64,000 nucleotides of DNA from Myxococcota bacterium (GCA_028284955.1 JANQQS010000102.1:76275-140274); one strand, 5' to 3'. Shown: positions 38,110 through 62,192, counted from the stretch's first letter. Made by a program: numbers and translations. The notes: generated by a model not told the origin, from the sequence alone.

Positions 38110-39570
38110 CTATGGACGGTCCGTGTCCTTGCTTCGGCGGATTCCGTAGCCTCGCATTTTCTTGTGCAAGTTCGTTCGTTCCACTCCGAGTAACCCAGCG
38201 GCCTTCGAAATATTCCAGCCGCAGTCTTCCAGAGTAGAGAGGATATACTGGCGTTCGGCGCGCTCGCGGTGTTCTCGCAGCGTGAGTCGGGCACCGTTTC
38301 CGGCTTCGGAGATCTCGCTCGGCGAATCGCCCCCACGAGCGTTCCCACCCGTCGACTCCGCGTGTACAGCGTTGTCGTTTACCGAGGTGCGTCCAAGGTT
38401 GCTTCCTAGCCGGCCTTCTTTGGGCAGATCGGCGAGGGTGATGCGGTCGCCGCTCAGGATGGCCATGCGCTCCACGACGTTTTTCAGCTCGCGCACGTTC
38501 CCGGGCCAGGGGCGACCCGCCAAACGGTCGAGCACTTCGGCGTCGATGGGTTTTTCTCGAAGCCCGTTGTCGAGGCAAAAGTCGCGCAAAAACGCACGCG
38601 CCAGGATGGGAACGTCGTCTTTGCGTTCGCGGAGGGGAGGGCTTTCGATGGGCACGACGTTGAGGCGAAAATACAAGTCTTCACGAAAGCGGCTTTCTTT
38701 GACTTCGGTCTCGAGATCTTTGTTGGTCGCGGCGAGAATGCGCACGTCCACGGCGATGCTTTGCTCGCCACCCACCCGGCTGATTTCGCCGCTTTGCACC
38801 GCTCGAAGCACTTTGGCTTGCGCGCTTGCGCTCATATCGCCGATCTCGTCGAGAAACAGCGTTCCGCCGTCGGCGAGCTCGAACATGCCTTTCTTTCGAC
38901 CGGCTGCGCCTGTAAACGCGCCTCGCTCGTGGCCGAAGAGCTCGCTCTCGATCAGTTCGGCGGGAATCGCGGCACAGTTAACTTTGACGAATCGTTTGTC
39001 GGCGCGGCGGCTAAGCTGGTGGATGGCGCGGGCGATCAGCTCTTTGCCGGTGCCGCTTTCCCCGGTGATGAGCACCCGGCCGTTGGTCGGGGCCACTTTT
39101 TCGATTTGGGCGAAGAGCTGCCGAATCGGCGCGCTCTCTCCGATCATGTCGTAGCGTTTTTGCGCCGCGGCTCGGAGGGCTTCGACTTCGCGCTGGAGCT
39201 GAGAGGCGCGCAGCGCGTTGCGCACGCTGATGAGTATGCGATCGCGGTCGAGCGGTTTCTCGAAGAAATCGGTGGCGCCCATTTGCACCGCGGAGACCGC
39301 CTCGGCGAGCGATGCATGGCCGCTGACCATGAGCACTGGGAGACGCTCCGTTTCGCGCTGGGTCCGCAATCGCTGCAGCGCTTCGATGCCGGTCATGTTG
39401 GGCAAGCGAACATCGAGGATGGCGAGGTCGACGTCGCCCTCGGCGACGAGCTCGAGCGCGCGTTCGGCAGTATCAGATTCGAGAACTCGAAAGCCCGAGC
39501 CTTCGAGCACCATACGCAAGGTACGACGAATGTTCTTTTCGTCATCGACGACGAGAATGGTCGCACTCAT
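38110..39570 (-). CDS. Sigma54-dependent response regulator (NtrC family: REC, AAA+ and Fis-type HTH)
   Basis: The REC domain is 'ILVVDDEKNIRRTL..DLAILDVRLPNMTGIEAL'. Walker A is 'ITGESGTGKELIARAIH'. The sigma54-contact loop is 'ELFGHERGAFTGA'. The C-terminal HTH is 'WNISKAAGLLGVERTNLHKKMR'. I chose the ATG at 39570. Confidence 0.92.
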   Translation of the reverse strand: MSATILVVDDEKNIRRTLRMVLEGSGFRVLESDTAERALELVAEGDVDLAILDVRLPNMTGIEALQRLRTQRETERLPVLMVSGHASLAEAVSAVQMGATDFFEKPLDRDRILISVRNALRASQLQREVEALRAAAQKRYDMIGESAPIRQLFAQIEKVAPTNGRVLITGESGTGKELIARAIHQLSRRADKRFVKVNCAAIPAELIESELFGHERGAFTGAAGRKKGMFELADGGTLFLDEIGDMSASAQAKVLRAVQSGEISRVGGEQSIAVDVRILAATNKDLETEVKESRFREDLYFRLNVVPIESPPLRERKDDVPILARAFLRDFCLDNGLREKPIDAEVLDRLAGRPWPGNVRELKNVVERMAILSGDRITLADLPKEGRLGSNLGRTSVNDNAVHAESTGGNARGGDSPSEISEAGNGARLTLREHRERAERQYILSTLEDCGWNISKAAGLLGVERTNLHKKMRGYGIRRSKDTDRP

Positions 39571-39704
39571 TGGCCGGGGTATAGCATCGGTGACTTCCGG
39601 GGCGCATGCCGGAGGCGTCATCCTTGGACTTTCGATGTGTTCGGGGGTGCTAATTTGTGAGGATATCCGGGGGAGTGCGCGATTTTGAGCGGCCGGCTGA
39701 TGCG

Positions 39705-39733
39705 TTGACCATTTTTGTGGCCGTTGCTATAAG
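39705..39733 (+). promoter_or_regulatory. Candidate sigma70-type promoter of the glt/nfs-like operon (TTGACC, 17 nt spacer, TATAAG)
   Basis: Read directly, about 70 nt upstream of the ATG at 39807, which has a GGGAGGAAAAGGC Shine-Dalgarno region. Sequence match only. Confidence 0.35.
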
Positions 39734-39806
39734 CGCGAGGTCCGCAAGGCCGGGCGTTCGCAATCGGGCAGTCGGGCCCGTCGCTGTGAAGCTGGGAGGA
39801 AAAGGC

Positions 39807-40817
39807 ATGCGTAGGAAGGCTGCCGGGGGATTTCGTGCCTCTTGGGGCTTAGAAAAAAGCAACGCGTTCGCCACGTGGACTCAACCAGCTTGGCGTCGAC
39901 TGAGCTCCGTGATGTTCTTGGGCGCCGTCGTGTTTCTGGCTCCGATCGCGCTGTCGATGGCGGTTGCGATCCCTAAGACTGCAGTCGCGCAGCCTTCGGA
40001 GGAAGAAGCGGCAGGGGATAGCCAACCCGCAGAGAGCGGCGCGGACGACTCGGCTGGTCCATCTGAAGGCGCACCAAGCGGCGCTTCGGAAGGCGAGCCT
40101 GCCGAAGCGGGTGCCAGCGCGGGAGGCGAGGCCGCGGGCAGTGCCGCCGCAGGAGCGGGCGCGGAAGGCGGAGCGACCGGCGAGTCGCCCGAGGGTGCGA
40201 GCGGAGAAACGACGACGTCTGCGGAACGAGATCCGGAAATGGACGCCGGCACCTACGCGGTTCGGCTTCGCGATCTCGAGCAACGCATCAACGAACTTAA
40301 GGAGCAGATCTTCCGTTCCAAGGCTCGGCTGTCGCTGCTCGCCGAAACGGTACTGCAAGGCGTCGTCGCAGGTGCTCAATCGGTCATCGTTCACGAGAAC
40401 CGAATGTCGTCGTCGTATCGTCTGGTCAAAGCGACGTATGCGCTTGACGGCGCGCCGATTTTCAATCGCGCGGACGAAGAGGGCACCCTCGGGGAGCGAG
40501 AGGAGTTCCAAGTATACAACGGCAGCATCGTGCCTGGTGAACACACACTTACTGTGAATCTCGAATACCGCGGCCATGGATATGGGATTTTCTCGTATCT
40601 GAAGGGCTACCGATTCAAAGTTCGGTCGAACTACTCGTTCACCGCGCCCGAGGGGCGGGCGGTTACCGTTCGGGTCGTGGGATACGAGAAAGGGGGGCCG
40701 ACCGCGCCCCTCGAGGAACGACCCGCGATTCGCTACGTCGAGCGAGTGTCTGATCGTTCGCGAAGGCCGCCCAGCGAATCTTCGGACGAATCTCAAGGAG
40801 ACGAGGGAGACCAATAA
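39807..40817 (+). CDS. Secreted protein with an acidic linker, a coiled coil and a beta-rich C-terminal domain; first gene of the glt/nfs-like operon
   Basis: The signal peptide is 'VMFLGAVVFLAPIALSMAVAIPKTAVAQ'. A Glu/Gly/Ala/Ser-rich ~90-aa linker follows, then the coiled coil 'VRLRDLEQRINELKEQIFRSKARLSLL' and the beta-rich segment 'YRLVKATYALDG...HTLTVNLEYRGHGYGIFSY'. The stop overlaps the next start (TAATG). Confidence 0.6.
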   Translation: MRRKAAGGFRASWGLEKSNAFATWTQPAWRRLSSVMFLGAVVFLAPIALSMAVAIPKTAVAQPSEEEAAGDSQPAESGADDSAGPSEGAPSGASEGEPAEAGASAGGEAAGSAAAGAGAEGGATGESPEGASGETTTSAERDPEMDAGTYAVRLRDLEQRINELKEQIFRSKARLSLLAETVLQGVVAGAQSVIVHENRMSSSYRLVKATYALDGAPIFNRADEEGTLGEREEFQVYNGSIVPGEHTLTVNLEYRGHGYGIFSYLKGYRFKVRSNYSFTAPEGRAVTVRVVGYEKGGPTAPLEERPAIRYVERVSDRSRRPPSESSDESQGDEGDQ

Positions 40818-43231
40818 TGACGCGCGCTTTGGGCTCGGCGAGGTCGGGCCGTGCAAACGTGCGTAGTGTGGCTGCCAGGGTGTCGCCGATCGTGGGAGTC
40901 GGGGCGCTATGCTGCGCCAGCGCAGTTGGCGTGGCGGCCGATGCTGAGGCTCAAAACGCCGAGGAAGTCGCCCGAGATCTCACCGCCATTGAGGGCGACG
41001 CCCAAAACCTGACGCGCCAACCGCTCAGGCGCGGTCGTCTGCGAAGTCGCACGCATGTAGAGGAGCGCCTTACCGACGGCGAGCTTTTCTATCGCCTTCA
41101 AGACTACATTCGCGCCAGCATCATTTTTACTGATATCGTCGATAACTATCCGCGCCATCGAGCATACCCGGACGCATTGTTCCTGCTCGCGGATTCGCTC
41201 TTCCAGGCGGGTGACTACCTCGGGGCTCGGGCAAAATTCCGAGTGGTTATCGATCGTGCCGGCGAACCTGCGTTTCGTCCTTATGTTCAGCGGGCGCTCG
41301 GCCGACTGATCGAAATCGCCATTCACATTCGGGACTTTGAAGGGGTGGAAGAACACTTTCAGCGTCTCAGTCGTTTGCCGCCGACCGAAGTGGAAGCCAC
41401 TACGGCCTACTTCCGCGCCAAGTATTTGTACAACAAGGCGGTTCCGGTCGACGAAGTGATGCGCGACGGGGACGATGCCGCGGCGATGCCGGAAGTAGAT
41501 TCCTCGACGCTCGAAGAGTCGCGCCGTGCATTCGAAGCGGTACCACAGGGTAGCCCCTACTACCCCCAAGCGCGATACTTCATCGGTGTGATCCACACGT
41601 TGCGGGGCGAGCTACCGCAGGCGATCGAAGCGTTCCGACGCGTGCTGCGGGGGAAAGGCGAGACGCTGGAGCATCGCAAGGTGGCTCACCTGACCCGCGT
41701 AGCCCTCGGCAGACTGTATTACGAGACGAATCAGCTCGACCAAGCGATCGAGGCATACCAGTCGGTTCCACGTACGTCGGAGCATTTCGATACCGCGCTC
41801 TATGAAATAGCCTGGGTCTACATTCGCCTGGGCGACGCGACTCGCGCGGAGCGGGCGCTCGAAGTGCTCTCGGTGGCAGCGCCGAGCAGTAAGTACATTC
41901 CAGACGGCAAGCTGCTGCGGGGCAATCTGCTGCTTCGAAACGGTCGCTTGGATGCCGCAAACAAGGTGTTCCGGTCGGTGCGCACGGAGTTCGGTCCGGT
42001 ATACCGAGAGCTCGAGGAGGTTCGTGAGCAACACGAAGACCTGCTCGGGTATTTTCGTGGGCTCGTTCGAGAGAATCTCGATACGTTCGATGCAGCGTCC
42101 ATCGTGCCGCCGAGTGCGCAGAAATGGACCACGCCGGGTAGCGACTTTGACCGCGCGATGTCCGCGCTGTCCGACCTGAGCCAATCGCGTCAGCTTGTTG
42201 CCGAAACAAGCGATCTCATTGTGCGCCTCAACGCTGCGATCGGTTCACCCAACCGCGTGAGTGTGTTTCCAGACTTGCGCTCTCAACGTGAACGGACGAC
42301 GGCCATTCGCAACCGTTTGGCTCGCGCACAGCGTGCGCTGATCCGAATCGAGGAATCCAACTCGTCAGGCGAAAGTGGGGAACTTCGCGAAGTCCGCGCG
42401 CAGCGGCGGCGCATCGAACGTTCGCTCGGTCGTATGCCCACCGACAACGACGATTTCATTATTCGAGACGACCAGTTGCTCAGTCGATATCGTCGGTTGC
42501 GGCGAGATTTGAGCGCACTCGAGGTCGAGCTGCTCGGTATCGAAGCACGAATCGTAGCCACCGATACGTTTGTCGGTGCCACTGCGAACGAGCAGCAAAA
42601 CGCCGAGGCGGTGACCAGCGAGCTCGGGCAGCACCGCGACGCAGTGGCGCGCTATCGTGAGCAGATCGCGGAGCTCGAGCGTCTGATCGAGATCGGTCGG
42701 ATCCAAGTGGGGGTAGGCGACGCACGCTATCGGCGGGACGACCGACTGCGGAATGAATATACGCAACTGCTTGAGCGCGAGCGCCGCTTGAGCGGCGGGC
42801 GACGGCCGGAGACAGACCGTTTGTTTGGGAAGATCGTTCGAGTGGAATCGATGCTCGATCGGCGCGATGCCCAGATCGAGCGCGTCGTCGAGGAACGCGT
42901 GAACGAGATGAAGCGGGTGATCGATGAAGAAAGCCAGAAGCTTACGGGCTATCAAGAATCGCTGGCTGCGCTCGAGGGCGAAACCGAAGAGGTGGTCGGT
43001 GCGGTGGCGTATGCGTCGTTCGGAGAGATTCGCGATCGGTTCTACAGCCTTGTACTACGCGCGGACGTCGGACGGATCGATGTGACGTGGGCGCGGCGCG
43101 AAGAGCACCGCACCCGTGTTGACATGCTGACCCGCGAGCGCTCCCGAGAGCTTCAGGCGCTCGACGACGAGTTTCGCGACATCATGGATGAACAGCCGGC
43201 CGGTGAGGAAGAAGAGGGAGGCGATCAGTGA
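40817..43231 (+). CDS. Periplasmic TPR plus long coiled-coil protein (GltC/NfsC-like position)
   Basis: The signal peptide is 'IVGVGALCCASAVGVAADAEAQ'. YbgF-like TPRs are present ('YRLQDYIRASIIF..YPRHRAYPDALFLLADSLFQAGDYLGAR'). About 350 aa of heptad-rich sequence and an acidic tail follow. Confidence 0.6.
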   Translation: MTRALGSARSGRANVRSVAARVSPIVGVGALCCASAVGVAADAEAQNAEEVARDLTAIEGDAQNLTRQPLRRGRLRSRTHVEERLTDGELFYRLQDYIRASIIFTDIVDNYPRHRAYPDALFLLADSLFQAGDYLGARAKFRVVIDRAGEPAFRPYVQRALGRLIEIAIHIRDFEGVEEHFQRLSRLPPTEVEATTAYFRAKYLYNKAVPVDEVMRDGDDAAAMPEVDSSTLEESRRAFEAVPQGSPYYPQARYFIGVIHTLRGELPQAIEAFRRVLRGKGETLEHRKVAHLTRVALGRLYYETNQLDQAIEAYQSVPRTSEHFDTALYEIAWVYIRLGDATRAERALEVLSVAAPSSKYIPDGKLLRGNLLLRNGRLDAANKVFRSVRTEFGPVYRELEEVREQHEDLLGYFRGLVRENLDTFDAASIVPPSAQKWTTPGSDFDRAMSALSDLSQSRQLVAETSDLIVRLNAAIGSPNRVSVFPDLRSQRERTTAIRNRLARAQRALIRIEESNSSGESGELREVRAQRRRIERSLGRMPTDNDDFIIRDDQLLSRYRRLRRDLSALEVELLGIEARIVATDTFVGATANEQQNAEAVTSELGQHRDAVARYREQIAELERLIEIGRIQVGVGDARYRRDDRLRNEYTQLLERERRLSGGRRPETDRLFGKIVRVESMLDRRDAQIERVVEERVNEMKRVIDEESQKLTGYQESLAALEGETEEVVGAVAYASFGEIRDRFYSLVLRADVGRIDVTWARREEHRTRVDMLTRERSRELQALDDEFRDIMDEQPAGEEEEGGDQ

Positions 43232-46200
43232 GCCTCGGACGAGTGCAGGCGCGCGTCGCAATCTTGGCGGCTCTTTCAGTTTTTCTAGCGGTTCCGTTTT
43301 TGCGAGCGCAGCCGTCGGAGGACGAAAGCGCTTCGCAAACAGACAAATCTTCCTCTGGGCGTCGCACGTCGGACACGTCGGGAGCGGAGGGCGGTGACGC
43401 CCAATCTGGCGCGAGCGAGTCTGGCGCCAGCAGCGAAAACGGCAGCGAAGCGACCGACTCACAAGGTGCGGCTCCACAAGATTCGGGAGGCACTCCACAG
43501 CCGACCGAGGAAGGGCAAGACGCCTCTGCCGCGAGCAGCTCAGAGGAAGGAGCAGGTTCTGGAAATACTTCTGGCGAAGTTCCGTTGCCGTCTTTCTTGG
43601 ATACCACGGATCGCCGGATCGTAGACGAGCGACCGCCGCCCTCGCCGGAGCAAGTTGCCGCGCTGCGAGAGATGGAAAAGGAAGTTGAGCGTTTTCAGCT
43701 CGTGGGCCAATCGTATCGGGCGACTGTGGTGTCGCTGGTGCGGCGAGAGTACCTCCGCCAGCGTCGCGGCCGTGACCAGTGGTACGGTCGGCAAATTCGC
43801 GATGAAGAGCGGATGCTCAACGAGGCTCGCGCGAACGCGATTCGTCAGTTCGAGCGTTTTATCGAGCGCTATCCAGACGACCCGACGTACACCCCGGACG
43901 CCATGTTTCGTCTCGGGGAACTCTATTTTGAGCGGAGCGCGGTTCAGTTTCAGGAGCAGTATGATGCGGCCCAGGCGGCTCGCGACCGCGGCGACGAAGA
44001 CGTCGAGCTTCCCGAGACCCCCGACTACCTGCCCACCATCGAACTCTACAAGCGTTTGGTTCGGAACTTTCCCGACTACCGCCGCATCGACGGCGTTCTG
44101 TATCTGATCGGCTACTGCTTGAACGAAATGGGGGAAATCGACGAGGCGCGTGAAGCCTGGTTGGCGCTTGCGTGTGCCAATAAGCATAAATACGACGCTT
44201 CGGAAAAGGTTCCTGACGAAGCAGAGCTGGCTGGCGAAGGCACCGAGGACGGCGATTCTGAAAAGGAAGCTGACCATCCCGCGCTCGAGCTCGACAAAGA
44301 AGAAGAAGAGGTTGCCGCGACGGGTCCGTTCGTCGATCCCTATCGCGATTGCAAACCGGTTCAGGAAGACGCGCGCTTCGTCAGCGAGACATGGTTTCGT
44401 ATCGGCGAGTACCACTTTGACGATTACGGCTCGCCACACGCGCTGGACCTAGCGATCAGCGCGTACAATCGCATTCTCACGGAGCCGGAGGACCGAAACT
44501 ACAACCTCGCTTTGTACAAGGTCGCTTGGGCGTACTACCGAGCGAGTCGGTATCCCGAGGCGATCAAGCATTTTGGGATGCTGGTGCAGTGGTCGGACGA
44601 TGAGCGTCAGCGAACCGGAAAGGCCGGTTCCGAACTACGCCCCGAGGCGATTCAATATCTAGGTATTGCGTTCGCGTACGACGATTGGAACGAGAATCAG
44701 GTTCCTGATCCCATTGAAGGGCAGCAAACGGGAATCGAACGGATTCAGAGCCCCAACCTGCTACCGCAAGATCGACCGTGGACGCCTGATGTGTACTTCC
44801 AGCTCGGTCAGGTTTACTTCGACGAGGCCAAATACCCGGAGGCCATTGCAGTCTGGCGCTTGGCGCTGGAGAAATGGCCGAACCACCGCATGGCGCCCGA
44901 GATAACAAACTTGGTGGCTCGCGCGCACCAGCGCCACAACGAGTTTGAAGATGCGATCGCGGCGCGCTCAGAGCTCGCTCGGTTTACCGAGGGTGGGGAC
45001 TGGTGGAACGCAAACGTCGACAATCCGAAGGAGCAGCGGCGTGCCGAGCAGCTCGCCGAAAACGCGCTCATCGCCACCGCCATTCATCACCATACCGAGG
45101 CTCAAAAGCTGCGAAGCCAGTGTGTCGCGGAGCAGGACGTTTCGAAATGCCGGTTGGCGCAGGAGCAATATGGGCTAGCCGCGGCAGCCTATCGTGGATA
45201 CCTCGAGCGATATCCCAACAACCCGCAGGCGTACGAGCTGCGATACAACCTCGCCGACGCGCTTTATTGGTCTGAAAATTACGAAGAAGCAGCCAAAGAA
45301 TACGCGGCCGTTCGCGACTCGAATCTTGACGACGCGCATCTTGCCGAATCGGCGCGGCGTGTCGTGGAGTCCATGAAGCGGATTGTCGATGCGGCGGTCG
45401 AACGGGGCGAGATTACAGTTCGGAACGAACCTCCGGCCGTGTCCGGTACTCCGCCCACGGTGCGGCCGACGGAGATGCCACAGCTTGTGCAAAGGCTTGC
45501 CCGGGCTCGCGAGATGTACATTGCGCGCGTGAGCGAAGAGCAGGATAGCGAGAATGTTCGCGAGGCGTACGATTACAACAACGCGCTTCTGCTCTACTGG
45601 TATGGCTACTGGCCCCAGGCGAAGAAGCGCTTTGAACGCATTTTTGATGAGCGCTGCACCGGTCGCTACGCGGATGAGACCGGCCGCGTCGCGTGGCTCA
45701 ATCTGCGCGAGATGGCGGTGCGGCTGCAGAACAATGACGAGCTTGAGCGGCTGGCCGCCGAGCTTCAAAAGCGCAAATGTACGTTTAGTTCGGATGAGAA
45801 CGCGGCTGCAGAGGTCGACTGTTCGCAGCCGGAGAATGCGGAACATCCCTTTTGCCTGGTGCAGGGAGACCTCAACGCGATCCAGTATCGGCGCGCGATC
45901 GAGGTGTACAAGAAGGCGGAGGGCGCGAGCGGTGATGAGCAGCGGCGCCTCTACGAGAGAGCGGCGACCATGTTGGTCAAAGCGGTCAACGAGAATCCGA
46001 ATGACCCCCAGGCACCGGTTGCTCTCGAATGGGCGGCAACAGCATTAGAACGCACGAGTCGGTTCGAATCGGCGGCGACGCTATATCAAAGGATTGTGAA
46101 CGAAGTGGGTCCGCGTCGTGCAGGAAGCGCTGAGGAGCAGGCTCGTCTCGATGCGATTTTGGCGAACGCGTACTTTCGCCTGGCGTTCAACGCGAACCGG

Positions 46201-47319
46201 TTTTTCGATTTCGATCGCGCGGTGGAGAACTACCGGGTGCTTGCCGATACCGACCGGTTTGAGAAATCGGGTGACGCCAAGGTGCAAGAGAAACGCGAAG
46301 ATGCGTTGATCAATGCGGCGATTATTCTTGAGCGCTTGCAGCGTTATGACCAAGCGACGCGATATTATCGTCGGGCGTACAGCTCCGTTTCTGATCCTGC
46401 GATCAAGCGTCGAGCGCTCTATCGAATCGGCGAAATCGCTTACAAGCAAAAGAACTGGAGCCGCACTGTCCGTGAGATGAGAAACTTCATCAAGAAATAC
46501 GGAGGCGATTCCTCGGCAGGCGAACTGGTGGTGTTGGCGCACTGGCGCATCGCGCAAGCGCGAAAAGCAGATCGGCAGGTCCGCGATTATCCGAAGGCCC
46601 TCGAAGCGGTGACCCAAGCGTTTAGCCGTTCAGGCCAAGCGGCGGGCTCCATTGCCGCTGAATACGCCGCGGAAGCGCGATTCCGGTTGGTGGATCCAGA
46701 AATCAAGAGCTTCGAGCGCTTTTCGATCAAACCGGGCCGTCCGGCGGACATGAAGGCCTACGTGCGTACGGTCACTTCCCAGATTGAATCCGGCGCGCGT
46801 CAGGCGCAGACACTGTCTGACGGGTACAGTCCCGTGCTCGCGTACCGGCGACCGACGTGGACGATCGCCTCCTTTGTTCGGCAGGGTCGAGTGTACGAGA
46901 TTTTGGCGCGAGCAGTGCTCAACGCGCCGTTTGTGATGCCCGCCGATATGCAACGACAGCTTCGCAGGGTCGGCCCGGATGCGCGCGAAGACGTGCGCAT
47001 TCAGGTGGAGGACCAGATTCGCCAAGTGCTCGATGAGCGAGTGCGGCCTATCGAATGTCTCGCCGTGGCGCGATACGCGCTTGCCGCGCGGGCGGCGCAA
47101 GCGGGAAGCATCGACGATGAGTATACCCGCGTAGCCATTGACCGGCTGCAGGCCTACGGCGACGAGCGCATCGCGGAGTGCATCGCCGAAGCGCAGCGAG
47201 CCGACTCCAGCTTCAAAGCTTATCGAGCGGGAGAGTTCACTCGCGCGCCGCGGGGCCAGGTCATGACGATTCGCCCTGGAACGGGAGCGCCGCCGCTAGC
47301 ATCGGGGGGTCGTCGATGA
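43228..47319 (+). CDS. Very large (1363 aa) secreted TPR protein, GltD/NfsD (AgmU)-like by size and position
   Basis: The signal peptide is 'VAILAALSVFLAVPFLRAQ'. An acidic Ser/Gly/Glu linker is followed by TPR-like repeats throughout ('YPDDPTYTPDAMFRLGELYFE', 'YNLALYKVAWAYYRASRYPEAIKHF'). The GTG start overlaps the preceding stop (GTGA). Confidence 0.6.
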   Translation: MSLGRVQARVAILAALSVFLAVPFLRAQPSEDESASQTDKSSSGRRTSDTSGAEGGDAQSGASESGASSENGSEATDSQGAAPQDSGGTPQPTEEGQDASAASSSEEGAGSGNTSGEVPLPSFLDTTDRRIVDERPPPSPEQVAALREMEKEVERFQLVGQSYRATVVSLVRREYLRQRRGRDQWYGRQIRDEERMLNEARANAIRQFERFIERYPDDPTYTPDAMFRLGELYFERSAVQFQEQYDAAQAARDRGDEDVELPETPDYLPTIELYKRLVRNFPDYRRIDGVLYLIGYCLNEMGEIDEAREAWLALACANKHKYDASEKVPDEAELAGEGTEDGDSEKEADHPALELDKEEEEVAATGPFVDPYRDCKPVQEDARFVSETWFRIGEYHFDDYGSPHALDLAISAYNRILTEPEDRNYNLALYKVAWAYYRASRYPEAIKHFGMLVQWSDDERQRTGKAGSELRPEAIQYLGIAFAYDDWNENQVPDPIEGQQTGIERIQSPNLLPQDRPWTPDVYFQLGQVYFDEAKYPEAIAVWRLALEKWPNHRMAPEITNLVARAHQRHNEFEDAIAARSELARFTEGGDWWNANVDNPKEQRRAEQLAENALIATAIHHHTEAQKLRSQCVAEQDVSKCRLAQEQYGLAAAAYRGYLERYPNNPQAYELRYNLADALYWSENYEEAAKEYAAVRDSNLDDAHLAESARRVVESMKRIVDAAVERGEITVRNEPPAVSGTPPTVRPTEMPQLVQRLARAREMYIARVSEEQDSENVREAYDYNNALLLYWYGYWPQAKKRFERIFDERCTGRYADETGRVAWLNLREMAVRLQNNDELERLAAELQKRKCTFSSDENAAAEVDCSQPENAEHPFCLVQGDLNAIQYRRAIEVYKKAEGASGDEQRRLYERAATMLVKAVNENPNDPQAPVALEWAATALERTSRFESAATLYQRIVNEVGPRRAGSAEEQARLDAILANAYFRLAFNANRFFDFDRAVENYRVLADTDRFEKSGDAKVQEKREDALINAAIILERLQRYDQATRYYRRAYSSVSDPAIKRRALYRIGEIAYKQKNWSRTVREMRNFIKKYGGDSSAGELVVLAHWRIAQARKADRQVRDYPKALEAVTQAFSRSGQAAGSIAAEYAAEARFRLVDPEIKSFERFSIKPGRPADMKAYVRTVTSQIESGARQAQTLSDGYSPVLAYRRPTWTIASFVRQGRVYEILARAVLNAPFVMPADMQRQLRRVGPDAREDVRIQVEDQIRQVLDERVRPIECLAVARYALAARAAQAGSIDDEYTRVAIDRLQAYGDERIAECIAEAQRADSSFKAYRAGEFTRAPRGQVMTIRPGTGAPPLASGGRR

Positions 47320-48704
47320 TGGTCGTTCGTGTAGAAGAGCGTCGCTGGCTCGTCTCCGTCATTGCATGTGCGCTAGCGCTGGGCTCAGCGTGTAAACGCG
47401 ACGGTGGGGGAACGACTCCAGAAGGGTCCGCCTCCGCTGGAGGATCGGGCGGCGAAACAGCAGCGGGGGAAGACGGCGCCATCGAGGACCAGGATTGGGA
47501 CGGCGACGGCAAACCAGATTCATCCCAACCTGGTGAAGAAGGCACGAGCCAGTGGGGGGCGACCCGGGCCGAGCAATGCCGACAAAACCCGCGTCCGGAA
47601 ATGAAGTCCTCGGCGCAAGGGCCGTTTCGCGATGGTGTGCGAGCAGCCGGCGCGGGCGACGTTGCAGGCGCGCGTCGTTTATTTCAGCAAGCGCTGAGCG
47701 CTGACCCGAAAGCGTACCAAGCTGCATACAACCTGGGTGTTCTCGCCGATCGCTCGGGTCAAGAATCCAAGGCGATCGAGCAGTATCAAAACACGCTGCG
47801 CATTCAGTCTGATTATGCACCGGCCGCCAAAGGGATCGTCACCATTCATCTGCGGCGCGGCCAAGTTTCGCGAGCAGTTTCGTTTGTGGAACCCGTCGCG
47901 AGGAAACATGGGAACAATCTCGCGATACAAGCGCTTGCGGCCGAGGTGATGGTGCAGGCAGAGCGCTTCGACGATGCGTGGACGCTCGCGCGGAAGGCGC
48001 TCAAATGTGACGAGCGATACGTACCGGCCCTGATCGCGCTGGTGAAGGCGAGCCGCAAGCAAGGGCGAAAAGAACTAGCCGAGTCGATTCTCGACCAAGC
48101 GTTGGGGATGCAGGGAAACAACGCGGAGCTGCATTTTTTGAAGGGTATGATGTTGCGGGACGAGCCCGGCCGCTTGCGCGACTCGATGAAAGAGTTTCGA
48201 CGCGCAGTTGAGCTCCGACCTTCCTACGCCGAGGCTCGGATGGCGCTGGGCGTGCAGCTCCTCGCAGGAGGAAATTACAACGAAGCGGTTGCCCAGTTCG
48301 AGGCGGCAGTGCGGCTGACCCCGACGGTGACCGCCGTGCACTTGAATCTCGCGGACGCGTATCGTGCAAATAAGCAGTGGGCGAAGGCCAAAGCCTCGTT
48401 CGATCGGGTATTGAGATCGAAGCCTGATTTGCCTCAAGCTCATTTCAATCTCGGGCTTATGTACCTCACCGCGAAAGGAGATTTTCCCGGTCTGGATGAG
48501 CTCGGAGCGCTTAAGAAAGCCGTGGAAGAGTTTACGAAGTATCGCAATGTGATGGGACCCCGGCTGCCTCGCGACGATCAGAGCGAAGAATATCTTCGTG
48601 ATTTGAAGCGGCAGATCGAGCGTACCGAACGTCGCATCGAGCGAGACAAAGCGAGGAAGAAGCGTGCGGCGGAGCGCGGTGCGCGCGGGGAAGCAAGCCA
48701 GTGA
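47316..48704 (+). CDS. TPR-repeat lipoprotein, GltE/NfsE (AglT)-like
   Basis: The ATGATG start overlaps the upstream stop (ATGA at 47316-47319). The lipobox is 'ACALALGSAC'. An acidic linker is followed by about 8 canonical TPRs ('AYNLGVLADRSGQESKAIEQYQNTLRIQSDYAPA'...) and a basic coiled tail. Confidence 0.65.
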   Translation: MMVVRVEERRWLVSVIACALALGSACKRDGGGTTPEGSASAGGSGGETAAGEDGAIEDQDWDGDGKPDSSQPGEEGTSQWGATRAEQCRQNPRPEMKSSAQGPFRDGVRAAGAGDVAGARRLFQQALSADPKAYQAAYNLGVLADRSGQESKAIEQYQNTLRIQSDYAPAAKGIVTIHLRRGQVSRAVSFVEPVARKHGNNLAIQALAAEVMVQAERFDDAWTLARKALKCDERYVPALIALVKASRKQGRKELAESILDQALGMQGNNAELHFLKGMMLRDEPGRLRDSMKEFRRAVELRPSYAEARMALGVQLLAGGNYNEAVAQFEAAVRLTPTVTAVHLNLADAYRANKQWAKAKASFDRVLRSKPDLPQAHFNLGLMYLTAKGDFPGLDELGALKKAVEEFTKYRNVMGPRLPRDDQSEEYLRDLKRQIERTERRIERDKARKKRAAERGARGEASQ

Positions 48705-48997
48705 TGGGAAGCGCTATGCAAACATCAACATCCAGGATGCGGACAGTGTTCCTTGCCCTTTTGCTGATCTGCGGGCTTGCAGGATGGTTTTTGCCATCGA
48801 CGAGTCATGCGCAAGGTCGTGGTCGCCGTTCCGGGCCGCGGGTCATTCAGCTAGAAGAAATTCGGATAGAAGGCCGCGTGCAAAAGCCCAATGCCTTCTA
48901 CATTCTGAACCGCTCGAATCTTGGATACGAAGTGTTGGATCTACGAACCAGCTTTCTACGAGAAATCGTGCGGAGTGTACAACGCCCTCCTTTTTGA
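48701..48997 (+). CDS. Small (about 97 aa) signal-anchored protein, GltF/NfsF-like position
   Basis: The GTGATG start overlaps the upstream stop. The signal/anchor is 'VFLALLLICGLAGWFLPSTSHAQ'. The conserved-looking core is 'VIQLEEIRIEGRVQKPNAFYILNRS'. Confidence 0.55.
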   Translation: MMGSAMQTSTSRMRTVFLALLLICGLAGWFLPSTSHAQGRGRRSGPRVIQLEEIRIEGRVQKPNAFYILNRSNLGYEVLDLRTSFLREIVRSVQRPPF

Positions 48998-49044
48998 GCG
49001 GGTCTGGCCGTCCGTTTGTTTGAGTGTTTGGCGCTGTTTTGTCT

Positions 49045-49460
49045 GAGGGTTTGGCACCCAAACCCTCTCGTCGGGGTACGCCCCCGCCGATTCACCCAAG
49101 CTCCCCCGCCAGGAAGCACGTGACCTGGTTGCGTGAGGGTGAACTGCGGGGTCTCCGCCGCTTTGCGTCGGGGCGGCCGCGGAAGCGGCCGGAGTCGGGA
49201 GGGGGACCCGAGCGGGTCGTACCCGGAGGGTTTGCCTCAAACCCTCCAGAGAACACAGCTCCCCCTCCAGGATGCACGCGATCTGGTTGTCTAGTGGGTG
49301 AACTGCGGTGGTCAGTTCGCACAATCACCGCAACGAACGTGCAACGCGTAACCGGGGCCCCGTCGCGGAGCGATGGGGCGGCCGCGAACGCGGCCGGCGT
49401 CGGGAGGGGGGCCCCGCGGAATCGTATTCCGCGGGGGGAGGGGCTGCGGCCAGCCCCTCC
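49045..49460 (+). repeat. Structured intergenic region: two diverged copies of a ~160-210 bp unit, each with a perfect 10-bp hairpin and two conserved blocks, ending in two adjacent strong hairpins
   Basis: Hairpins are GAGGGTTTGG-cac-CCAAACCCTC (49045-49067) and GGAGGGTTTG-cct-CAAACCCTCC (49225-49247). Block 49099-49153 aligns with 49257-49313, and block 49169-49209 aligns with 49375-49415; the latter contains GGCCGC-ggaa-GCGGCC versus GGCCGC-gaac-GCGGCC. The terminal hairpins are 49412-49436 (11 bp) and 49437-49460 (10 bp). Confidence 0.8.
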
Positions 49461-49475
49461 AGAAATGAGCGCACT

Positions 49476-50069
49476 ATGACGGCGATTCACGTTGCGCAGA
49501 TTGTGCTCGGGGGAGCCGCGGCGTTTGTTGTGGCGGCTCGGGTTCGTGCGCTTGGTTTTCAGGCGCCGCTCGGTGATTCGCGTTCCTCAAGAAGCTCGGA
49601 CTATGTGGGCGCTGTTCGCGCCGCGCACCGACAGGGAGACGAGTCGCGATTGCGGTTCTTACTACGGTCGGGGCAGGCCGCGTGGAGTTCACGTGTTTTG
49701 TCGGCGATCTGCTTCGGTGGCGCTGGAAATGCAGATGAAGAGAGGGCGCTCGACGATGTGGTCCACGAACTTCGGTATGAGGCACGTCGAGGACTGTGGG
49801 TGTTGCGCGGTTTCGCCCGAATCGGCACGCTGACGGCGCTTCTTGGCGCGCTTTGGGAGGTACTCACGGTATCGACCAAAAAGCAGAGCATTCTCGGCTT
49901 GAAGGCAGGGTTTGTGGAAACGGTCGCGATCGAAAACGCAAGCTTGGCGCTCGCTATGGGGATTTCGATTACCGGATTTTGCTGGGCGTGCGCGCATATC
50001 TTGCAGCGCCAGGCGACGCAGCTGCTCGACGAAGTGTTGCGGATGGAGGAAGTACGTGGGCTGGAGTGA
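49476..50069 (+). CDS. 3-TM membrane protein, possibly a degenerate MotA/TolQ/ExbB-family channel subunit
   Basis: The topology is TM1 (res ~5-25), a ~100-aa loop, then TM2 and TM3, as in TolQ/ExbB. 'FARIGTLTALLGALWEVL' resembles the TolQ TM2 'ISPYIGLFGTVWGIM'. 'ASLALAMGISITGFCWACAHILQRQATQL' resembles the TM3 '[29 protein letters not shown]'. I chose the ATG at 49476 because the ORF's upstream 56 aa lie in the repeat region. Confidence 0.4.
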   Translation: MTAIHVAQIVLGGAAAFVVAARVRALGFQAPLGDSRSSRSSDYVGAVRAAHRQGDESRLRFLLRSGQAAWSSRVLSAICFGGAGNADEERALDDVVHELRYEARRGLWVLRGFARIGTLTALLGALWEVLTVSTKKQSILGLKAGFVETVAIENASLALAMGISITGFCWACAHILQRQATQLLDEVLRMEEVRGLE

Positions 50070-50214
50070 AGGGCCGCCCAGACCGCATCGCGCACCATGG
50101 GATGGACCAACACATGCTCCTGATGGTACGTTACGCCGAAACGATCGAAGTCGTTGGGGAACTTTTCCGTGGTACCGGACTCTTATACTTAGTCAGTGAG
50201 GGGAACGCGGCAGG

Positions 50215-51672
50215 ATGAACCAGACACAGGGGCAAAAGGGTCGAGGGTCAAAGCCGGGTGCGATGACCATGGCGATGCAGGCAGTTTCCAAGCCTGCAGG
50301 GCCGAAGGTATTGCGAATCGGCATTATTCAAAGCGGCAAGATCGTCGAAGAACGCATTATTCGGCGTAGAGAGACCGTGTCGGTCGGCACATCAGAAAAG
50401 AACCATTTCATCCTGCACACCGAGGGGCTGCCTTCGCGTTTCGATCTCTTTCAGGTCGTCGGGTCGGATTACATTCTGAATTTCACAGACCAGATGACAG
50501 GTCGCGTAGGACTCCCCGGCGGCGTCCAGCAGCTAGACCAGCTGCGCAGCGGAGGCGGCGCACGCAATGCGGGTTCTCACTTTCAGGTGAAGCTTAGCGA
50601 CACGTCGCGCGGCAAGATCGTCATCGGCGGCATCACGCTGCTTTTTCAGTTTGTGACTCCGCCTCCGGTCACGCCGCGCCCGCAGCTGCCGGCAGCCGCC
50701 CGCGGCGGTTTCGTCAAAGGAATCGACTGGCTCTTCACAGCATTTGTCGTGTTTTCCTACATGACGTTTTTCGGATTCGTGATTTATCTCGAAAATGCGG
50801 ATTGGGAGATTCAGCAAGGGATCGCACAAGTTCCAGAAAGCATGGCTCGACTGATTTTCGAAGAGCCGGTTCCACCTCCCGATGAGCCCGAACCCACCGA
50901 CGAACCAACCGAGGAAGATGCTTCCGAGGAAGCGACCGAGGAGTCGAAGCCGACGCCAACAAAACGCGCCCCCAGCAAAGCCTCGGGTGGAGATAAGAAC
51001 AACGCAGAAGACCCCGCAACGAACGCGGAAGCCAGAGCGCGAATCGCCCAAGAAGCTGCGGCCCAAGCTGAGGCTATGATTCTGGGCGCGTTGGGCGAGG
51101 GAGGCGCTCTTTCGGACGTACTCGCCGGGGGCGCGGTGACCGGCAACGCTGAGGATGTGTTGGCGCAGGCATCGGGTGTGGGCGTGGCTCAAGGTCGATC
51201 CGGGGGAGCCTTGCGCACGCGATCTGGAGGCGGCGGCAGCGGCCAGCAGGGTGGCCTCGGAGGATTGCGCGCGTCGAAAGGTGCGGGTCGAGCGGCCGGC
51301 GAGGGTGGCGAAGTCGTGGAGCGCAGGATTCGCGGAAATATCAAGCTTGAGTCAGGTGGCGATATCGGCGGATCGGGCGATTTTGATAGCGCGCTGGTGG
51401 TCCGGCAGATCCGCAAGCGGATTCGTGCGATTCAGCGGTGTTATGAAACCGAGCTTCGCAAAAATCCAAGTCTCGCAGGTAAGGTAACGGTTCAGTTCAC
51501 GATTCAGGAGCGAGGAAACGTAACCGGAGCGAGGGCGACGCAAAACACCACCGGAAGCGCTGCGGTGGCCTCCTGCGTGACCCGAACAGTCGGTCGTTTT
51601 CGTTTCAATCCCGGCCCTGACGGGGGAAGCGTAAGCTTCAGTTACCCGTTCGTGTTCGCGCCACAAAACTGA
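50215..51672 (+). CDS. GltG/GltJ (PglI/AgmX)-like protein: FHA-like N-domain, TM helix, Pro/Glu-rich linker and AgmX/PglI C-terminal (TonB-C-like) domain
   Basis: The C-terminus is 'LVVRQIRKRIRAIQRCYETELRKNPSLAGKVTVQFTIQERGNVTGA...CVTRTVGRFRFNPGPDGGSVSFSYPFVFAPQ', which is the CYE..L..NP..GKV...YPFVF pattern of the AgmX/PglI domain. The TM helix is 'IDWLFTAFVVFSYMTFFGFVIYL'. The linker includes 'PVPPPDEPEPTDEPTEED'. Confidence 0.8.
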   Translation: MNQTQGQKGRGSKPGAMTMAMQAVSKPAGPKVLRIGIIQSGKIVEERIIRRRETVSVGTSEKNHFILHTEGLPSRFDLFQVVGSDYILNFTDQMTGRVGLPGGVQQLDQLRSGGGARNAGSHFQVKLSDTSRGKIVIGGITLLFQFVTPPPVTPRPQLPAAARGGFVKGIDWLFTAFVVFSYMTFFGFVIYLENADWEIQQGIAQVPESMARLIFEEPVPPPDEPEPTDEPTEEDASEEATEESKPTPTKRAPSKASGGDKNNAEDPATNAEARARIAQEAAAQAEAMILGALGEGGALSDVLAGGAVTGNAEDVLAQASGVGVAQGRSGGALRTRSGGGGSGQQGGLGGLRASKGAGRAAGEGGEVVERRIRGNIKLESGGDIGGSGDFDSALVVRQIRKRIRAIQRCYETELRKNPSLAGKVTVQFTIQERGNVTGARATQNTTGSAAVASCVTRTVGRFRFNPGPDGGSVSFSYPFVFAPQN

Positions 51673-51933
51673 TTTCGCGACGATCGATCGCGGAAGTTCT
51701 CGCTGTACGGTCTTGCCAGGTTCCCGCCACAGTTGGGTATCAATCGTTTTACGTTTGGTAGCTTAGTGTGGGTTTTTGCGGGCGATGTGCGCTGCCGACA
51801 AAGCGCGGGCAGGCTTCGACGGGCCAGCAAACTTCCCCGGTGGTGCTGAATGCCTGCGCGGTGGTACGCAACTGATCCTTTGAATCGCTGTTAATGTTGA
51901 CGTTTTTGTACTGGTCGTGGTCTACCCTGTGCG

Positions 51934-51961
51934 TTGACAGGTAGGTCCGGCTCGGTATACT
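51934..51961 (+). promoter_or_regulatory. Near-consensus sigma70-type promoter (TTGACA, 16 nt spacer, TATACT) upstream of the 51988 gene
   Basis: Read directly in an otherwise GC-rich 316-bp gap. A GAGG Shine-Dalgarno motif lies 7 nt before the ATG at 51988. Confidence 0.45.
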
Positions 51962-51987
51962 CCTGCCCACTCTGACGAGGTTCTGCC

Positions 51988-52620
51988 ATGAACAGACGCA
52001 CGCGCGTCACAATCACGATTTCCGCGATATGCTTGGGTGCCTGGACGCCATTTGCGTTCGGTGTATTCGGCGAAGCATCGGCGCAGGACGGCGTAGCCGG
52101 AACCGAAGGCACAGCCGGCGTTGATGCGTCGACCGACGAAGAAGCAGAAGTCGACGTTCGCAAACGTGCAGACCTAAGCTCGGACGAGCAGCTTCAGGAA
52201 GCGGAGTCGATTGTCCGTCGTGGGGCGCAGATCAGTCGTCGGGTGGCGGCGATGCTCGATCAGTCGCGCCGAGAGCGAGACATTATTCGCGTGACTTGCC
52301 TTGACGATAAGCTTACTCAGGTGAACGCAAACCTCCGGACATCTGAGCAACGGGTCAAGTCGCTCCGCGATGCGTCTGCGGCGAATGATGCGAATCGACG
52401 CAAACATGAGTACACCGTGATCACGGTTCTTGGACAAAAGTTCAACGTGCTAGAGCAGGAAGCGAACCAGTGCGTTGGCCAGGATTTATTTGACACCGGG
52501 GCGACGCGGGTCACAACCGACATTGACCCAGACACGCCCAACGAAGATCCCTCCACGACGCCAGAGCCGCCGCCGCCGCCTGTCCCGTTTATTCCGCCGC
52601 CCGCCAGTCCAGCTGTTTGA
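51988..52620 (+). CDS. Secreted coiled-coil protein with a Pro-rich C-terminus (GltH/NfsH position)
   Basis: The signal peptide is 'ITISAICLGAWTPFAFGVFGEASAQ'. An acidic linker and helical heptads ('DKLTQVNANLRTSEQRVKSLRD') follow. The C-terminus is 'PEPPPPPVPFIPPPASP'. Confidence 0.55.
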   Translation: MNRRTRVTITISAICLGAWTPFAFGVFGEASAQDGVAGTEGTAGVDASTDEEAEVDVRKRADLSSDEQLQEAESIVRRGAQISRRVAAMLDQSRRERDIIRVTCLDDKLTQVNANLRTSEQRVKSLRDASAANDANRRKHEYTVITVLGQKFNVLEQEANQCVGQDLFDTGATRVTTDIDPDTPNEDPSTTPEPPPPPVPFIPPPASPAV

Positions 52621-52705: not shown

Positions 52706-54070
52706 ATGACTTCAGGCGCCTTGGGTCATCGTAGCCTCGCTTACCACGGGCTTTTGTTTGCCACGACCTTGTTGCTCGCTCTCGCTGGCACGGCGTCATG
52801 GGGTTCTGGTAAGGCGGGCGCTCAAGCGTGGCTCCAAGATCGCGCTCGCGCCGAGGGTCCTGGTTTTCGTTTGGGTCGTCTCGAGTTGCATCCCGGAATC
52901 GGTGCAGAAGCGGGCTACGATTCAAACGTCTTTTTGTCTGATCAAAACGAAGTCGGCAGCGCGATTCTCCGCATCACTCCGCACCTCGACCTTGCGACAC
53001 TTGGTCCCCAACGAACCGACGACTTGGTGGAAGGCGATGAACAGCCGGTGCTCCCCAAGGTTGAGTTCCGAACCGGCGTTTCGGCCTCGCTTTATTACTT
53101 CTTTGACGACGCGCCTCAGAGCAACGTCGGCGTCGATGCGAATATGCGGCTCACGATCATGCCGGAGCGGCCGGTATCGTTCACCATATTCGATACCTAC
53201 TCTCGAAACATTCGCCCGTTCACGGAAGAAGGCGGCGGAAACGACTTTGCCCGAAACCAAAACGACGTCGGCGGCATGTTTACGTTTTCGTCGCGCGGCG
53301 GCGTGTTGACTGCCCGGGCAGGGTACACGCTCCGTGCTGACCTCTTCGAGAGCAACTCGTTCGACTACGCCAACAGTCTCACCCATCGCGGGGAGACAGG
53401 GATTACCTGGAGATTCCTGCCCCAGACGGCTCTCATTCACGATACGAGGGTCGACTATACGGACTACACCAGCAGTGCACCTTCCTCGCTTTTGCTGGGA
53501 GACAACACCCGCTTGCGATCGCGGGTGGGTGTCAATGGCGCACTGACTAAGAAGATTTCGTTTCTTGCCGCGGCGGGTTACGGCGCCGTGTTCATCTCGG
53601 ATGATGCATTTCGCGAGACAGACACCGTCGTGGCTCAAGGAGAGCTTCGCGTTCGTTTCCGGCCAGACTTGCGCTGGGCGTTGGGGTACGACCGTGACAT
53701 CGCCGGTTCCTTCGTAGGAAGTTTTTTCGTTCGAGATCGCGGATACACAAACTTGAATCTGCTCCTTGGAGGAGCATTTCTCCTCGGGGTGGAGGGCTCT
53801 GTATCCTACCTCGATTTCGGTTCTGCGCTTGAACCGGACGGCACCGCGCTTGGCGTAGGCGACACGACCGAACGTACCGATATCGTTGTGCGCGCGTCTT
53901 TGTTCGCGGAATATCGCTTCACCGATTGGCTCGCGATCAATGGGACTTTTGGGTACACCGCGGATTTCACGGACTTCGAGTTCACCCGCGTTGCGGCCAC
54001 CACGACGTTCCCGGACCCGGCCGACTTCCAGAAGTTTGAGGCTTGGTTTGGCGTTCGAGCATTCTACTAG
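52706..54070 (+). CDS. Outer-membrane beta-barrel protein of the polysaccharide-secretion type (Wzp/ExoB/EpsX-like)
   Basis: A signal peptide is present. 'LELHPGIGAEAGYDSNVF' is typical of EPS-associated barrels. Many alternating amphipathic strands follow, and the terminal 'FEAWFGVRAFY' has an aromatic last residue. Confidence 0.7.
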   Translation: MTSGALGHRSLAYHGLLFATTLLLALAGTASWGSGKAGAQAWLQDRARAEGPGFRLGRLELHPGIGAEAGYDSNVFLSDQNEVGSAILRITPHLDLATLGPQRTDDLVEGDEQPVLPKVEFRTGVSASLYYFFDDAPQSNVGVDANMRLTIMPERPVSFTIFDTYSRNIRPFTEEGGGNDFARNQNDVGGMFTFSSRGGVLTARAGYTLRADLFESNSFDYANSLTHRGETGITWRFLPQTALIHDTRVDYTDYTSSAPSSLLLGDNTRLRSRVGVNGALTKKISFLAAAGYGAVFISDDAFRETDTVVAQGELRVRFRPDLRWALGYDRDIAGSFVGSFFVRDRGYTNLNLLLGGAFLLGVEGSVSYLDFGSALEPDGTALGVGDTTERTDIVVRASLFAEYRFTDWLAINGTFGYTADFTDFEFTRVAATTTFPDPADFQKFEAWFGVRAFY

Positions 54071-55400: not shown

Positions 55401-55560
55401 CGATATTCGAAACGTGGTGAGTGCGGTTCGCACGAACAGCTCGGCTGTGGTCGAAAGTCCTCATAGGGAGTTCGGAACATCCGAGAATTCTGAATATTTT
55501 CGTGCGACGACACGTAATGAACGGGCCGGAATGGCGGGCATATTTATTGCTCCCATACTA

Positions 55561-61399: not shown

Positions 61400-61439
61400 A
61401 GGATGGTTGTCGCGGTTCGTGGATGGATCCGATTTGTGG

Positions 61440-62138: not shown

Positions 62139-62192
62139 GGGTAGGTGGCCTTTGTCATGGCTGCACCGGGGCCATTGGCTGCACCGTGGACA

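Follow-up and report, generated by a model that had tools for sequence, protein, structure and literature searches.

We analysed a 64,000-nucleotide stretch of DNA from a Myxococcota bacterium (GCA_028284955.1, JANQQS010000102.1:76275-140274; hereafter the window), which has about 62% G+C throughout and belongs to an uncultured lineage of the Polyangia, whose closest species representative, 'Polyangiaceae bacterium LLY-WYZ-15_3', is 74% identical. An initial annotation had described an eight-gene operon at 39705-52620 with the architecture of the Glt (gliding) and Nfs (spore-coat) envelope machines of Myxococcus xanthus. All eight open reading frames are indeed present on the + strand with the sizes given there, and every gene of the cluster has a positional ortholog in related contigs, indicating that the genes are real. 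The conserved unit comprises ten genes and reaches position 54650, and we refer to its products, all encoded on the + strand, as p1 to p10. The two added genes encode a Wzp/Wza-type translocon pair (p9 and p10), which the initial annotation had missed together with an AglR/TolQ stator remnant inside the cluster (p6). Compared with the G4 locus alone among the Glt paralogs of M. xanthus, the unit appears to be the colinear ortholog of MXAN_1923-1915, that is, of cluster G4 followed by MXAN_1917 and the genes for WzpB and WzaB.

Proteins encoded by the ten-gene unit

To obtain Myxococcus G4 DNA, we took the WzaB sequence of PDB entry 9N9A, found an identical Myxococcus protein and used its neighbourhood (locus L084, assembly GCA_900101905.1). 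This locus encodes proteins of 809, 1110, 489, 91 and 447 amino acids, then of 148 (a cyclic nucleotide monophosphate (cNMP)-binding protein), 187, 432 and 204 amino acids, corresponding to MXAN_1923 down to MXAN_1915; the start of L084 cuts the 809-amino-acid gene, so that the MXAN_1923 homolog is partial in our BLASTP comparisons. The related loci were the best 80 from a genome scan, all of them in metagenome-assembled genomes (MAGs), and 82 loci were compared by tblastn. Eight window proteins matched their positional counterparts in L084 in one-way BLASTP, with E values from 5e-16 to 1.7e-107, and apart from a weak TPR cross-match of p2 to the MXAN_1922 homolog (E 1e-4) the hits were to positional counterparts only.

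The second to fifth genes encode Glt-like scaffold proteins. p2 (40817-43231, 804 amino acids) is a GltC-like protein, predicted to be periplasmic, with an N-terminal TPR region and a coiled-coil C-terminal half of about 400 amino acids; GltC is its top NCBIfam match (E 1.3e-30, 107 bits against a cut-off of 450), it is 26% identical to the partial MXAN_1923 homolog (E 1e-19), and its length compares with 809 amino acids for MXAN_1923 and 802 for sce5945. p3 (43228-47319, 1363 amino acids) is a giant TPR protein of the GltD class, 28% identical over 1199 amino acids to the homolog of MXAN_1922 (E 1.7e-107), which appears among the gltD homologs of an earlier catalogue (Luciano et al. 2011, PLoS Genet 7:e1002268, PMC3169522). 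No NCBIfam model identified p3 as GltD, even at E<=10, and its matches were limited to YbgF/BamD TPR models; because the GltD homolog of Myxococcus G4 is likewise unmatched, this result is uninformative. p4 (47316-48704, 462 amino acids) is a GltE-class TPR lipoprotein, with GltE as its top NCBIfam match (E 1.8e-32, 113 bits against 225), 28% identity to the MXAN_1921 homolog (E 1.6e-41) and, in the window copy and its orthologs, a signal peptide followed by a Cys. p5 (48701-48997, 97-98 amino acids) is a small secreted protein of the GltF class. Its top NCBIfam match is CglF, which is GltF (PMC4488436), at E 2e-3 (18 bits against 90). The MXAN_1920 homolog, to which it is 49% identical (E 1.8e-16), matches CglF in turn at 1e-8. 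Across p1 to p8, Pfam returned TPRs and TonB_C only.

The seventh gene (50215-51672) encodes a bitopic protein of the GltG class, p7, of 485 amino acids. It consists of a cytoplasmic FHA fold (residues about 30-150), a transmembrane (TM) helix (about 166-194), a linker rich in Pro, Ala and Gly, and a C-terminal AgmX/PglI domain, which is TonB-C-like. GltG is the top NCBIfam match (E 1.1e-47, 163 bits against 650), aligned on profile positions 194-647, and p7 is 34% identical over 462 amino acids to the MXAN_1919 homolog (E 3e-61). The AgmX/PglI domain had been recognized in the initial annotation, and the myxo_SS_tail model indeed matches above its cut-off (E 3.7e-26). The same annotation had called the N-terminal part FHA-like. 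No Pfam FHA match was found for p7, and structure prediction bore the description out: an alignment-based AlphaFold2 model of residues 1-200 has an 11-strand sandwich followed by a TM helix, with a predicted local distance difference test (pLDDT) score of about 90 over residues 30-150, and among its 50 best PDB matches in Foldseek almost every one is an FHA domain (probability 1.0, target-normalized TM-scores 0.55-0.65, E 1e-3 to 8e-2). Read by eye, the site where a phosphothreonine-binding FHA domain has Gly-Arg has Gly then Thr in p7.

GltG has two FHA domains: an N-terminal one that binds GltI, and a central one (residues 190-329) that lies beside the TM helix and docks on the AglR pentamer (AlphaFold model in PMC11761067). 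p7 is a GltG that lacks the GltI-binding N-terminal FHA domain and keeps the motor-docking module, which fits a cluster without GltI. Relatives of p7 are numerous: a word search returned more than 1,100 homologs, the top 120 at 62-76% identity and other cluster types included, and clustering at 50% left 712 representatives with E<=1e-30, again with some from other cluster types. Lone p7 paralogs, 51-67% identical and unaccompanied by other cluster genes, occur in L030 (the genome of L029), L037 (the MAG of L011) and L022.

The unit ends in two genes that overlap by 23 bp. p9 (52706-54070) is a Wzp-type outer-membrane β-barrel porin and the positional ortholog of WzpB (MXAN_1916), matched by Pfam BBP2_2 at E 1e-5 and 32.5% identical to the WzpB homolog in L084 (E 5e-16). 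p10 (54048-54650, 200 amino acids) is a class-3 OPX lipoprotein orthologous to WzaB (MXAN_1915): it carries the Pfam domains Poly_export and SLBB, lacks the C-terminal membrane helix (Wza_C) and has a Cys after its signal peptide. Its best PDB match is 9N9A, M. xanthus sWzaB (E 1.4e-46), with Escherichia coli Wza at 7e-14, and it is 51% identical to full-length WzaB (E 2e-54). In the biosurfactant polysaccharide (BPS) pathway, WzaB and WzpB make up the outer-membrane translocon (PMC12819527, PMC9603273). The window pair shares with that translocon (PMC12819527, PMC9603273, PMC7310880) the lipoprotein of about 200 amino acids, the adjacent porin, the porin-then-OPX order and the short overlap; the Arg106-Arg107 pair of WzaB, read from the alignment, is Arg-Ala in p10.

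Two secreted proteins of the unit belong to no known family. p1 (39807-40817, 336 amino acids) combines a signal peptide with an acidic low-complexity stretch, a long helix and a β-rich C-terminal domain. Within the cluster it shows the strongest conservation, its C-terminal 170 or so amino acids being 52-91% identical in 43 of the 54 loci with enough upstream DNA. p8 (51988-52620, 210 amino acids) is helical and is the ortholog of MXAN_1917 (35% identity to the L084 homolog, E 7e-24); its ortholog alignment has two invariant Cys residues and a C-terminal PPxAS motif. Neither protein has a relative in Pfam, NCBIfam (E<=10) or PDB, where profiles gave chance-level coiled-coil matches only, and a single-sequence AlphaFold2 model of p1 was unusable (pLDDT 44). 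We considered p1 as GltA/B and rejected it, as it has no similarity to them and no barrel features. p8 was likewise rejected as GltH: it is helical, with no similarity, no barrel features and no family match.

The gene junctions TAATG (40815), GTGA (43228), ATGA (47316) and GTGATG (48701) read exactly as first annotated, and because of these overlapping stop and start codons p1 to p5 are translationally coupled. The genes and junctions of the proposed eight-gene operon therefore stand. A single operon is not established, because spacers of 478 bp (p5-p6), 145 bp (p6-p7) and 315 bp (p7-p8) follow p5 and the last of them holds a σ70-like match (TTGACA-16-TATACT, 11 of 12 positions, 51934-51961, + strand) ahead of p8. 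That match came from a consensus scan whose total of matches in the region was no higher than in shuffled sequence. A promoter-like site read from the sequence, TTGACC-17-TATAAG (39705-39733, + strand), lies 74 nt upstream of p1; the first base of its -35 hexamer is the start coordinate of the initial annotation, and the site is not among the matches of the scan. Most of the p5-p6 spacer is taken up by an imperfect direct duplication of about 200 bp (49099-49435) made of two repeat families, 73% and 88% identical, with no second copy elsewhere in the window. The spacer measures just 38-78 bp in the relatives L002 and L003, which do not have the duplication; a role for it in the machine is unlikely. 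An Rfam search gave no match for it and no RNA family between 38 and 56 kb.

Divergent from p1 lies a gene for an NtrC-like, σ54-type response regulator (38110-39621, - strand). It prompted a search for a σ54 promoter before p1, which found no -24/-12 match above chance; in L002 the regulator is not kept and an extracytoplasmic function (ECF) σ factor stands in its place. The window also encodes two Ser/Thr protein kinases, one with a PEGA domain, and a further PEGA-domain protein (9895-11553, 22774-25158 and 25291-27213). A second TonB_C protein (19764-21101), considered as a relative of p7, proved to be a generic TonB_C protein unrelated to it.

p6 and the stator genes of related loci

The sixth gene (49476-50069) encodes a three-helix inner-membrane protein of 197 amino acids. 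On its own, p6 has no word-sharing homologs and no Pfam match, and its family came to light through a profile of positional orthologs: relatives carry a gene of about 198 amino acids at this position, 25-38% identical to p6. Against PDB, the profile of 24 p6 orthologs had TolQ as its top match (E 1.1e-3), followed by ExbB and PomA, with TM2 and TM3 aligned. The Pfam family MotA_ExbB (PF01618) matched 13 of the 24 orthologs, with a best E value of 2.9e-6, leaving the window copy itself unmatched. p6 shares the TM1-loop-TM2-TM3 layout of the MotA/TolQ/ExbB stator family, and 11 loci have in its place an intact AglR-like gene that the p6 hidden Markov model matches with E values of 1e-22 to 1e-26.

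The equivalents of TolQ residues T145, T178 and P187 are all kept in these 11 partnered AglR-like proteins, and none of them is kept in any of 44 p6-like proteins. The window cluster has no TolR-like gene. By sequence, then, p6 is a highly diverged AglR/TolQ-type stator subunit that has neither the ion-pathway residues nor a TolR-like partner. Of the 44 p6-like proteins, 21 have Glu and 7 have Gln at the equivalent of TolQ G148 in TM2, where all 11 partnered AglR-like proteins have Gly; this Glu sits three residues further along the helix.

The 11 loci with intact genes (L052, L054, L057, L060, L068, L070, L071, L072, L074, L077 and L081) encode a TolQ-like and two TolR-like proteins between their GltE-like and GltG-like genes, as in L054 (7884-9811), whose TolQ-like gene matches NCBIfam tolQ at 3e-16. 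Most of them also have p8, Wzp and Wza downstream, making a self-contained cluster of motor, transducer and pore. We thus distinguish three layouts. In layout I, found in the 11 distant loci, an intact aglRQS-like trio lies between E and G, and a p5-like gene is kept in 4 of the 11; in layout II, that of the window and its close relatives, the interval holds F and the AglR relic; in layout III, that of Myxococcus and other distant loci, F directly precedes G. Linkage to Wzp/Wza is present in all three, as are p1 and p8, the latter being MXAN_1917 in Myxococcus. The same gene order as in layout I, gltC-D-E-x-aglR-Q-S-gltG, defines the ancestral core complex of Geobacter, gammaproteobacteria and Fibrobacter (PMC3169522), relative to which the window has lost aglQ/S and retains a degraded aglR. 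The cluster's own motor has thus decayed, with its AglQ/S partner lost.

Decay of this kind raises the question of whether the whole cluster is a largely non-functional relic. p6 is without all three channel residues and TolR-like partners, evolves fast, as its 25-38% identities attest, and is absent from other lineages. Yet every open reading frame is intact, p1, p5 and p7 are 60-90% identical among relatives, relatives of p7 number in the hundreds (some from other cluster types), and four gene junctions are translationally coupled. We regard a relic as barely credible.

Relation to G4 and to the Glt and Nfs machines

Beyond the gliding cluster, M. xanthus has the Glt-like clusters G3 (which is nfs), G4, G5 and M2 (Luciano et al. 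2011, PMC3169522). G4 was defined as MXAN_1919-1923, encoding proteins of 447, 91, 490, 1111 and 809 amino acids, and its function was called unknown (PMC3169522, Table S3). The initial annotation had compared the gene order with gltD-E-F-G-H and nfsD-E-F-G-H and had raised the prospect of a new paralogous class. D-E-F-G holds and extends upstream to C-D-E-F-G, with sizes of 804, 1363, 462, 98 and 485 amino acids against 809, 1111, 490, 91 and 447 in M. xanthus; the H assignment falls, since p8 is not GltH-like. Colinearity with the published G4 cluster speaks against a new class. Against the Glt models, the window and Myxococcus proteins scored much alike for GltG (163 and 158 bits) and GltE (113 and 121 bits), and 18 and 35 bits for CglF.

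With G4 the window shares the GltC-D-E-F-G order, a GltC-like protein of about 800 amino acids and a GltG-like protein of about 450-510 amino acids that has no N-terminal FHA domain. The downstream series MXAN_1917-WzpB-WzaB is also the same; this wider neighbourhood is proposed here and lies outside the published definition of G4. The window differs in its extra AglR-derived gene between F and G, M. xanthus in its cNMP-binding gene between G and MXAN_1917, and protein identities are 26-51%. To judge from the size and order of the genes alone, Sorangium sce5940-5945, Haliangium Hoch_6494-6498 and Stigmatella STAU_2684-2688 (PMC3169522, Table S3) apparently belong to the same class; sce5941 is unlisted in that table and, by its numbering, would be an extra gene between F and G, as in the window. 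By locus tags, mglA and mglB (MXAN_1925/1926) lie just beyond the Myxococcus G4 cluster. In the literature searched, we found no mention of MXAN_1917-1924 and nothing linking G4 to BPS or to WzpB/WzaB.

The top NCBIfam matches of p2, p4, p5 and p7 (GltC, GltE, CglF and GltG, respectively, with p1, p6 and p8 unmatched) agree with the earlier view of a Glt/Nfs-type machine and, together with the C-D-E-F-G order, which is that of the Anaeromyxobacter glt clusters, could be taken to indicate an ortholog of Agl-Glt that propels the cell on surfaces. All four proteins, however, score far below the curated equivalog cut-offs, which makes them paralogs rather than Glt orthologs. No cluster protein matched GltA, B, H, I, J or K in NCBIfam or Pfam (CglB was not searched for), and the flanking genes of the window gave no Glt-family match in Pfam. 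The components C, D, E, F and G have homologs in Agl-Glt (PMC11761067), and p7 keeps the central FHA domain and TM helix, the linker and the TonB-C-like tail; the window differs in its degenerate stator and in the missing GltI-binding FHA domain of p7, and has no functional motor in the cluster. Moreover, a polar mutation in MXAN_1922, the M. xanthus ortholog of the p3 gene, caused no motility defect (PMC3169522). A role in gliding is already largely refuted and, in our judgement, very improbable.

A second possibility is an Nfs-type machine for spore-coat assembly, acting in sporulation. Nfs moves the Exo polymer, which is exported through a Wza/Wzp pair, and is driven by Agl (Wartel et al. 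2013, PMC3858216). The window resembles Nfs plus Exo in having a single Glt-paralog cluster beside a Wza/Wzp pair and amino-sugar glycan genes, and the Agl-Nfs system with WzaS/WzpS likewise pairs a Glt paralog handling a Wzx/Wzy polysaccharide with a class-3 OPX protein and porin, and draws its power in trans from a TolQR-type motor via a GltG-class protein. The window cluster is nevertheless colinear with G4 and not with nfsA-H (MXAN_3371-3378), which has the outer-membrane barrels NfsA/B, NfsH and an FHA-bearing NfsG of 682 amino acids; nfs and exo are separate loci, whereas in the window NfsA/B-type barrels are missing and the translocon genes lie inside the conserved module. In addition, the OPX protein is by position a WzaB ortholog, and BPS acts mainly in vegetative swarms (PMC7310880). 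We therefore consider a sporulation machine improbable.

Linkage to the translocon and proposed function

Among the 82 loci, the order p1-p2-p3-p4-p5-(p6)-p7-p8-p9-p10 was seen down to 37% identity in p7. Downstream sequence of at least 4.5 kb was available for 51 loci: p8 and p9 are each present in 45 of them and p10 in 40, and lone p7 paralogs account for three of the misses. Linkage to Wzp/Wza holds in about 45 of 48 related loci. Upstream, in 54 loci with at least 9.5 kb of sequence, p3 and p4 are each present in 51, p2 in 50 and p1 in 43. In M. xanthus, wzaB and wzpB have remained beside G4 while the other BPS pathway genes are 1.0 Mb away (PMC7310880). In Sandaracinus, the pair is contiguous with other BPS pathway genes, and Glt-like neighbours are unmentioned (Islam et al., PMC7310880).

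The genes that follow p10 (54651-63551) belong to glycan synthesis and are variable. They encode a methyltransferase, a NAGPA-like protein, two DegT aminotransferases, a glycosyltransferase of family GT4, an acetyltransferase, a Bac_transf initiating transferase, a PIG-L deacetylase and WbqC. They are not conserved among the loci, and Wzc-like and Wzy-like genes occur elsewhere, in 17 and 10 loci, respectively. Because these genes differ from the BPS locus, the polymer is probably not BPS itself. The stop codon of p10 abuts the GTG start codon of the methyltransferase gene; this gene and that of the NAGPA-like phosphodiester glycosidase (54651-56721) have no counterpart in 83 related loci.

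On balance, these observations incline us to the view that the locus, an apparent ortholog of G4 with MXAN_1917 and WzpB/WzaB, encodes a trans-envelope scaffold that works with a polysaccharide translocon. The main rival is an envelope-integrity or outer-membrane-tethering system resembling Tol-Pal or TonB, for which the Wzp and Wza genes would simply be inherited neighbours. p2 and p3 match YbgF/CpoB and BamD-type TPR models, p6 is TolQ-like and p7 TolA/TonB-like, and p8-p10, with insertions between p7 and p8 in some loci, may be transcribed separately. However, the linkage persists in nearly all loci with adequate sequence, across three layouts and down to 37% identity, the Myxococcus pair stayed with G4 when parted from its own biosynthetic genes (PMC7310880), and Glt and Nfs, the two known relatives, each act together with secreted glycans (PMC3858216). 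We consider such a system unlikely, although clearly less so than the gliding or sporulation roles.

Several points weigh against a functional link with the translocon. It is an argument from gene adjacency alone, and the published work on WzaB, WzpB and WzcB accounts for BPS export with no extra factors and leaves the neighbouring genes unmentioned (PMC12819527, PMC9603273). The 315-bp gap and the promoter-like site ahead of p8 suggest that p8-p9-p10 may be a separate transcription unit. In L006, L023, L028, L029, L031 and L056, inserted genes of 1.5-9.3 kb part p8-p9-p10 from p7, and in L007 (11655-15000) the three genes are rearranged, with p8 after p10; because of these displacements and this rearrangement, p8-p9-p10 behaves as a separable unit. 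In L084, the cNMP-binding gene (7503-7949, 148 amino acids) separates the GltG-like gene from that for MXAN_1917. Neither a motor gene nor a gene for Wzx, Wzy or Wzc is present in the window, whose last position is 64000. Orthology to G4 was tested against the G4 locus alone among the Glt paralogs, and the comparisons of p10 covered WzaB and, for WzaX, the EpsY family model.

A scaffold acting together with the adjacent translocon remains the most likely function, and by analogy with Agl-Glt and Agl-Nfs it might operate as follows. In the inner membrane, the FHA fold and TM helix of the GltG-like p7 would dock on a TolQ-type pentamer, its long disordered linker would cross the peptidoglycan, and its TonB-C-like tail would bind the GltD-like p3. 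The GltE-like p4, the GltF-like p5 and the GltC-like p2 would complete a periplasmic scaffold of TPRs and coiled coils, which would most likely end on the Wzp porin and Wza lipoprotein in place of the GltA/B/H/K barrels. The complex could then help to export, gate or distribute a polysaccharide made by a Wzx/Wzy pathway on the cell surface, in parallel to Nfs with the Exo polymer. Because p6 has neither channel residues nor an AglQ/S partner, any energy input would have to come from a motor encoded at another site, much as in M. xanthus, where Glt and Nfs are both served by Agl.

More tentatively, the Glt/Nfs core complex may have originated as an accessory of Wzx/Wzy polysaccharide secretion driven by the proton-motive force, with gliding and spore-coat winding arising later and G4 as the missing partner of the BPS type. 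A TolQR-type motor and a TonB/TolA-like transducer would, in such an ancestor, have acted through the TPR scaffold on the Wzp-Wza translocon, opening it or pulling and laying out the polymer.

Since 2011 it has been an open question what the G4 and G5 paralogs and the ancestral core complex do. Across Myxococcota, G4, MXAN_1917, WzpB and WzaB form one module by their conserved gene linkage, and some lineages still have an aglRQS-like motor of their own; with this module, and with the gradation from an intact motor to a relic, the function of G4 becomes open to direct test. Should the link to the translocon prove false, the locus would be one more copy of a catalogued paralog. If it is true, models of class-3 OPX secretion would gain a further layer, energy-coupled or scaffolding, and the link would explain how the gliding and spore-coat machines evolved from an ancestor that handled polysaccharides.

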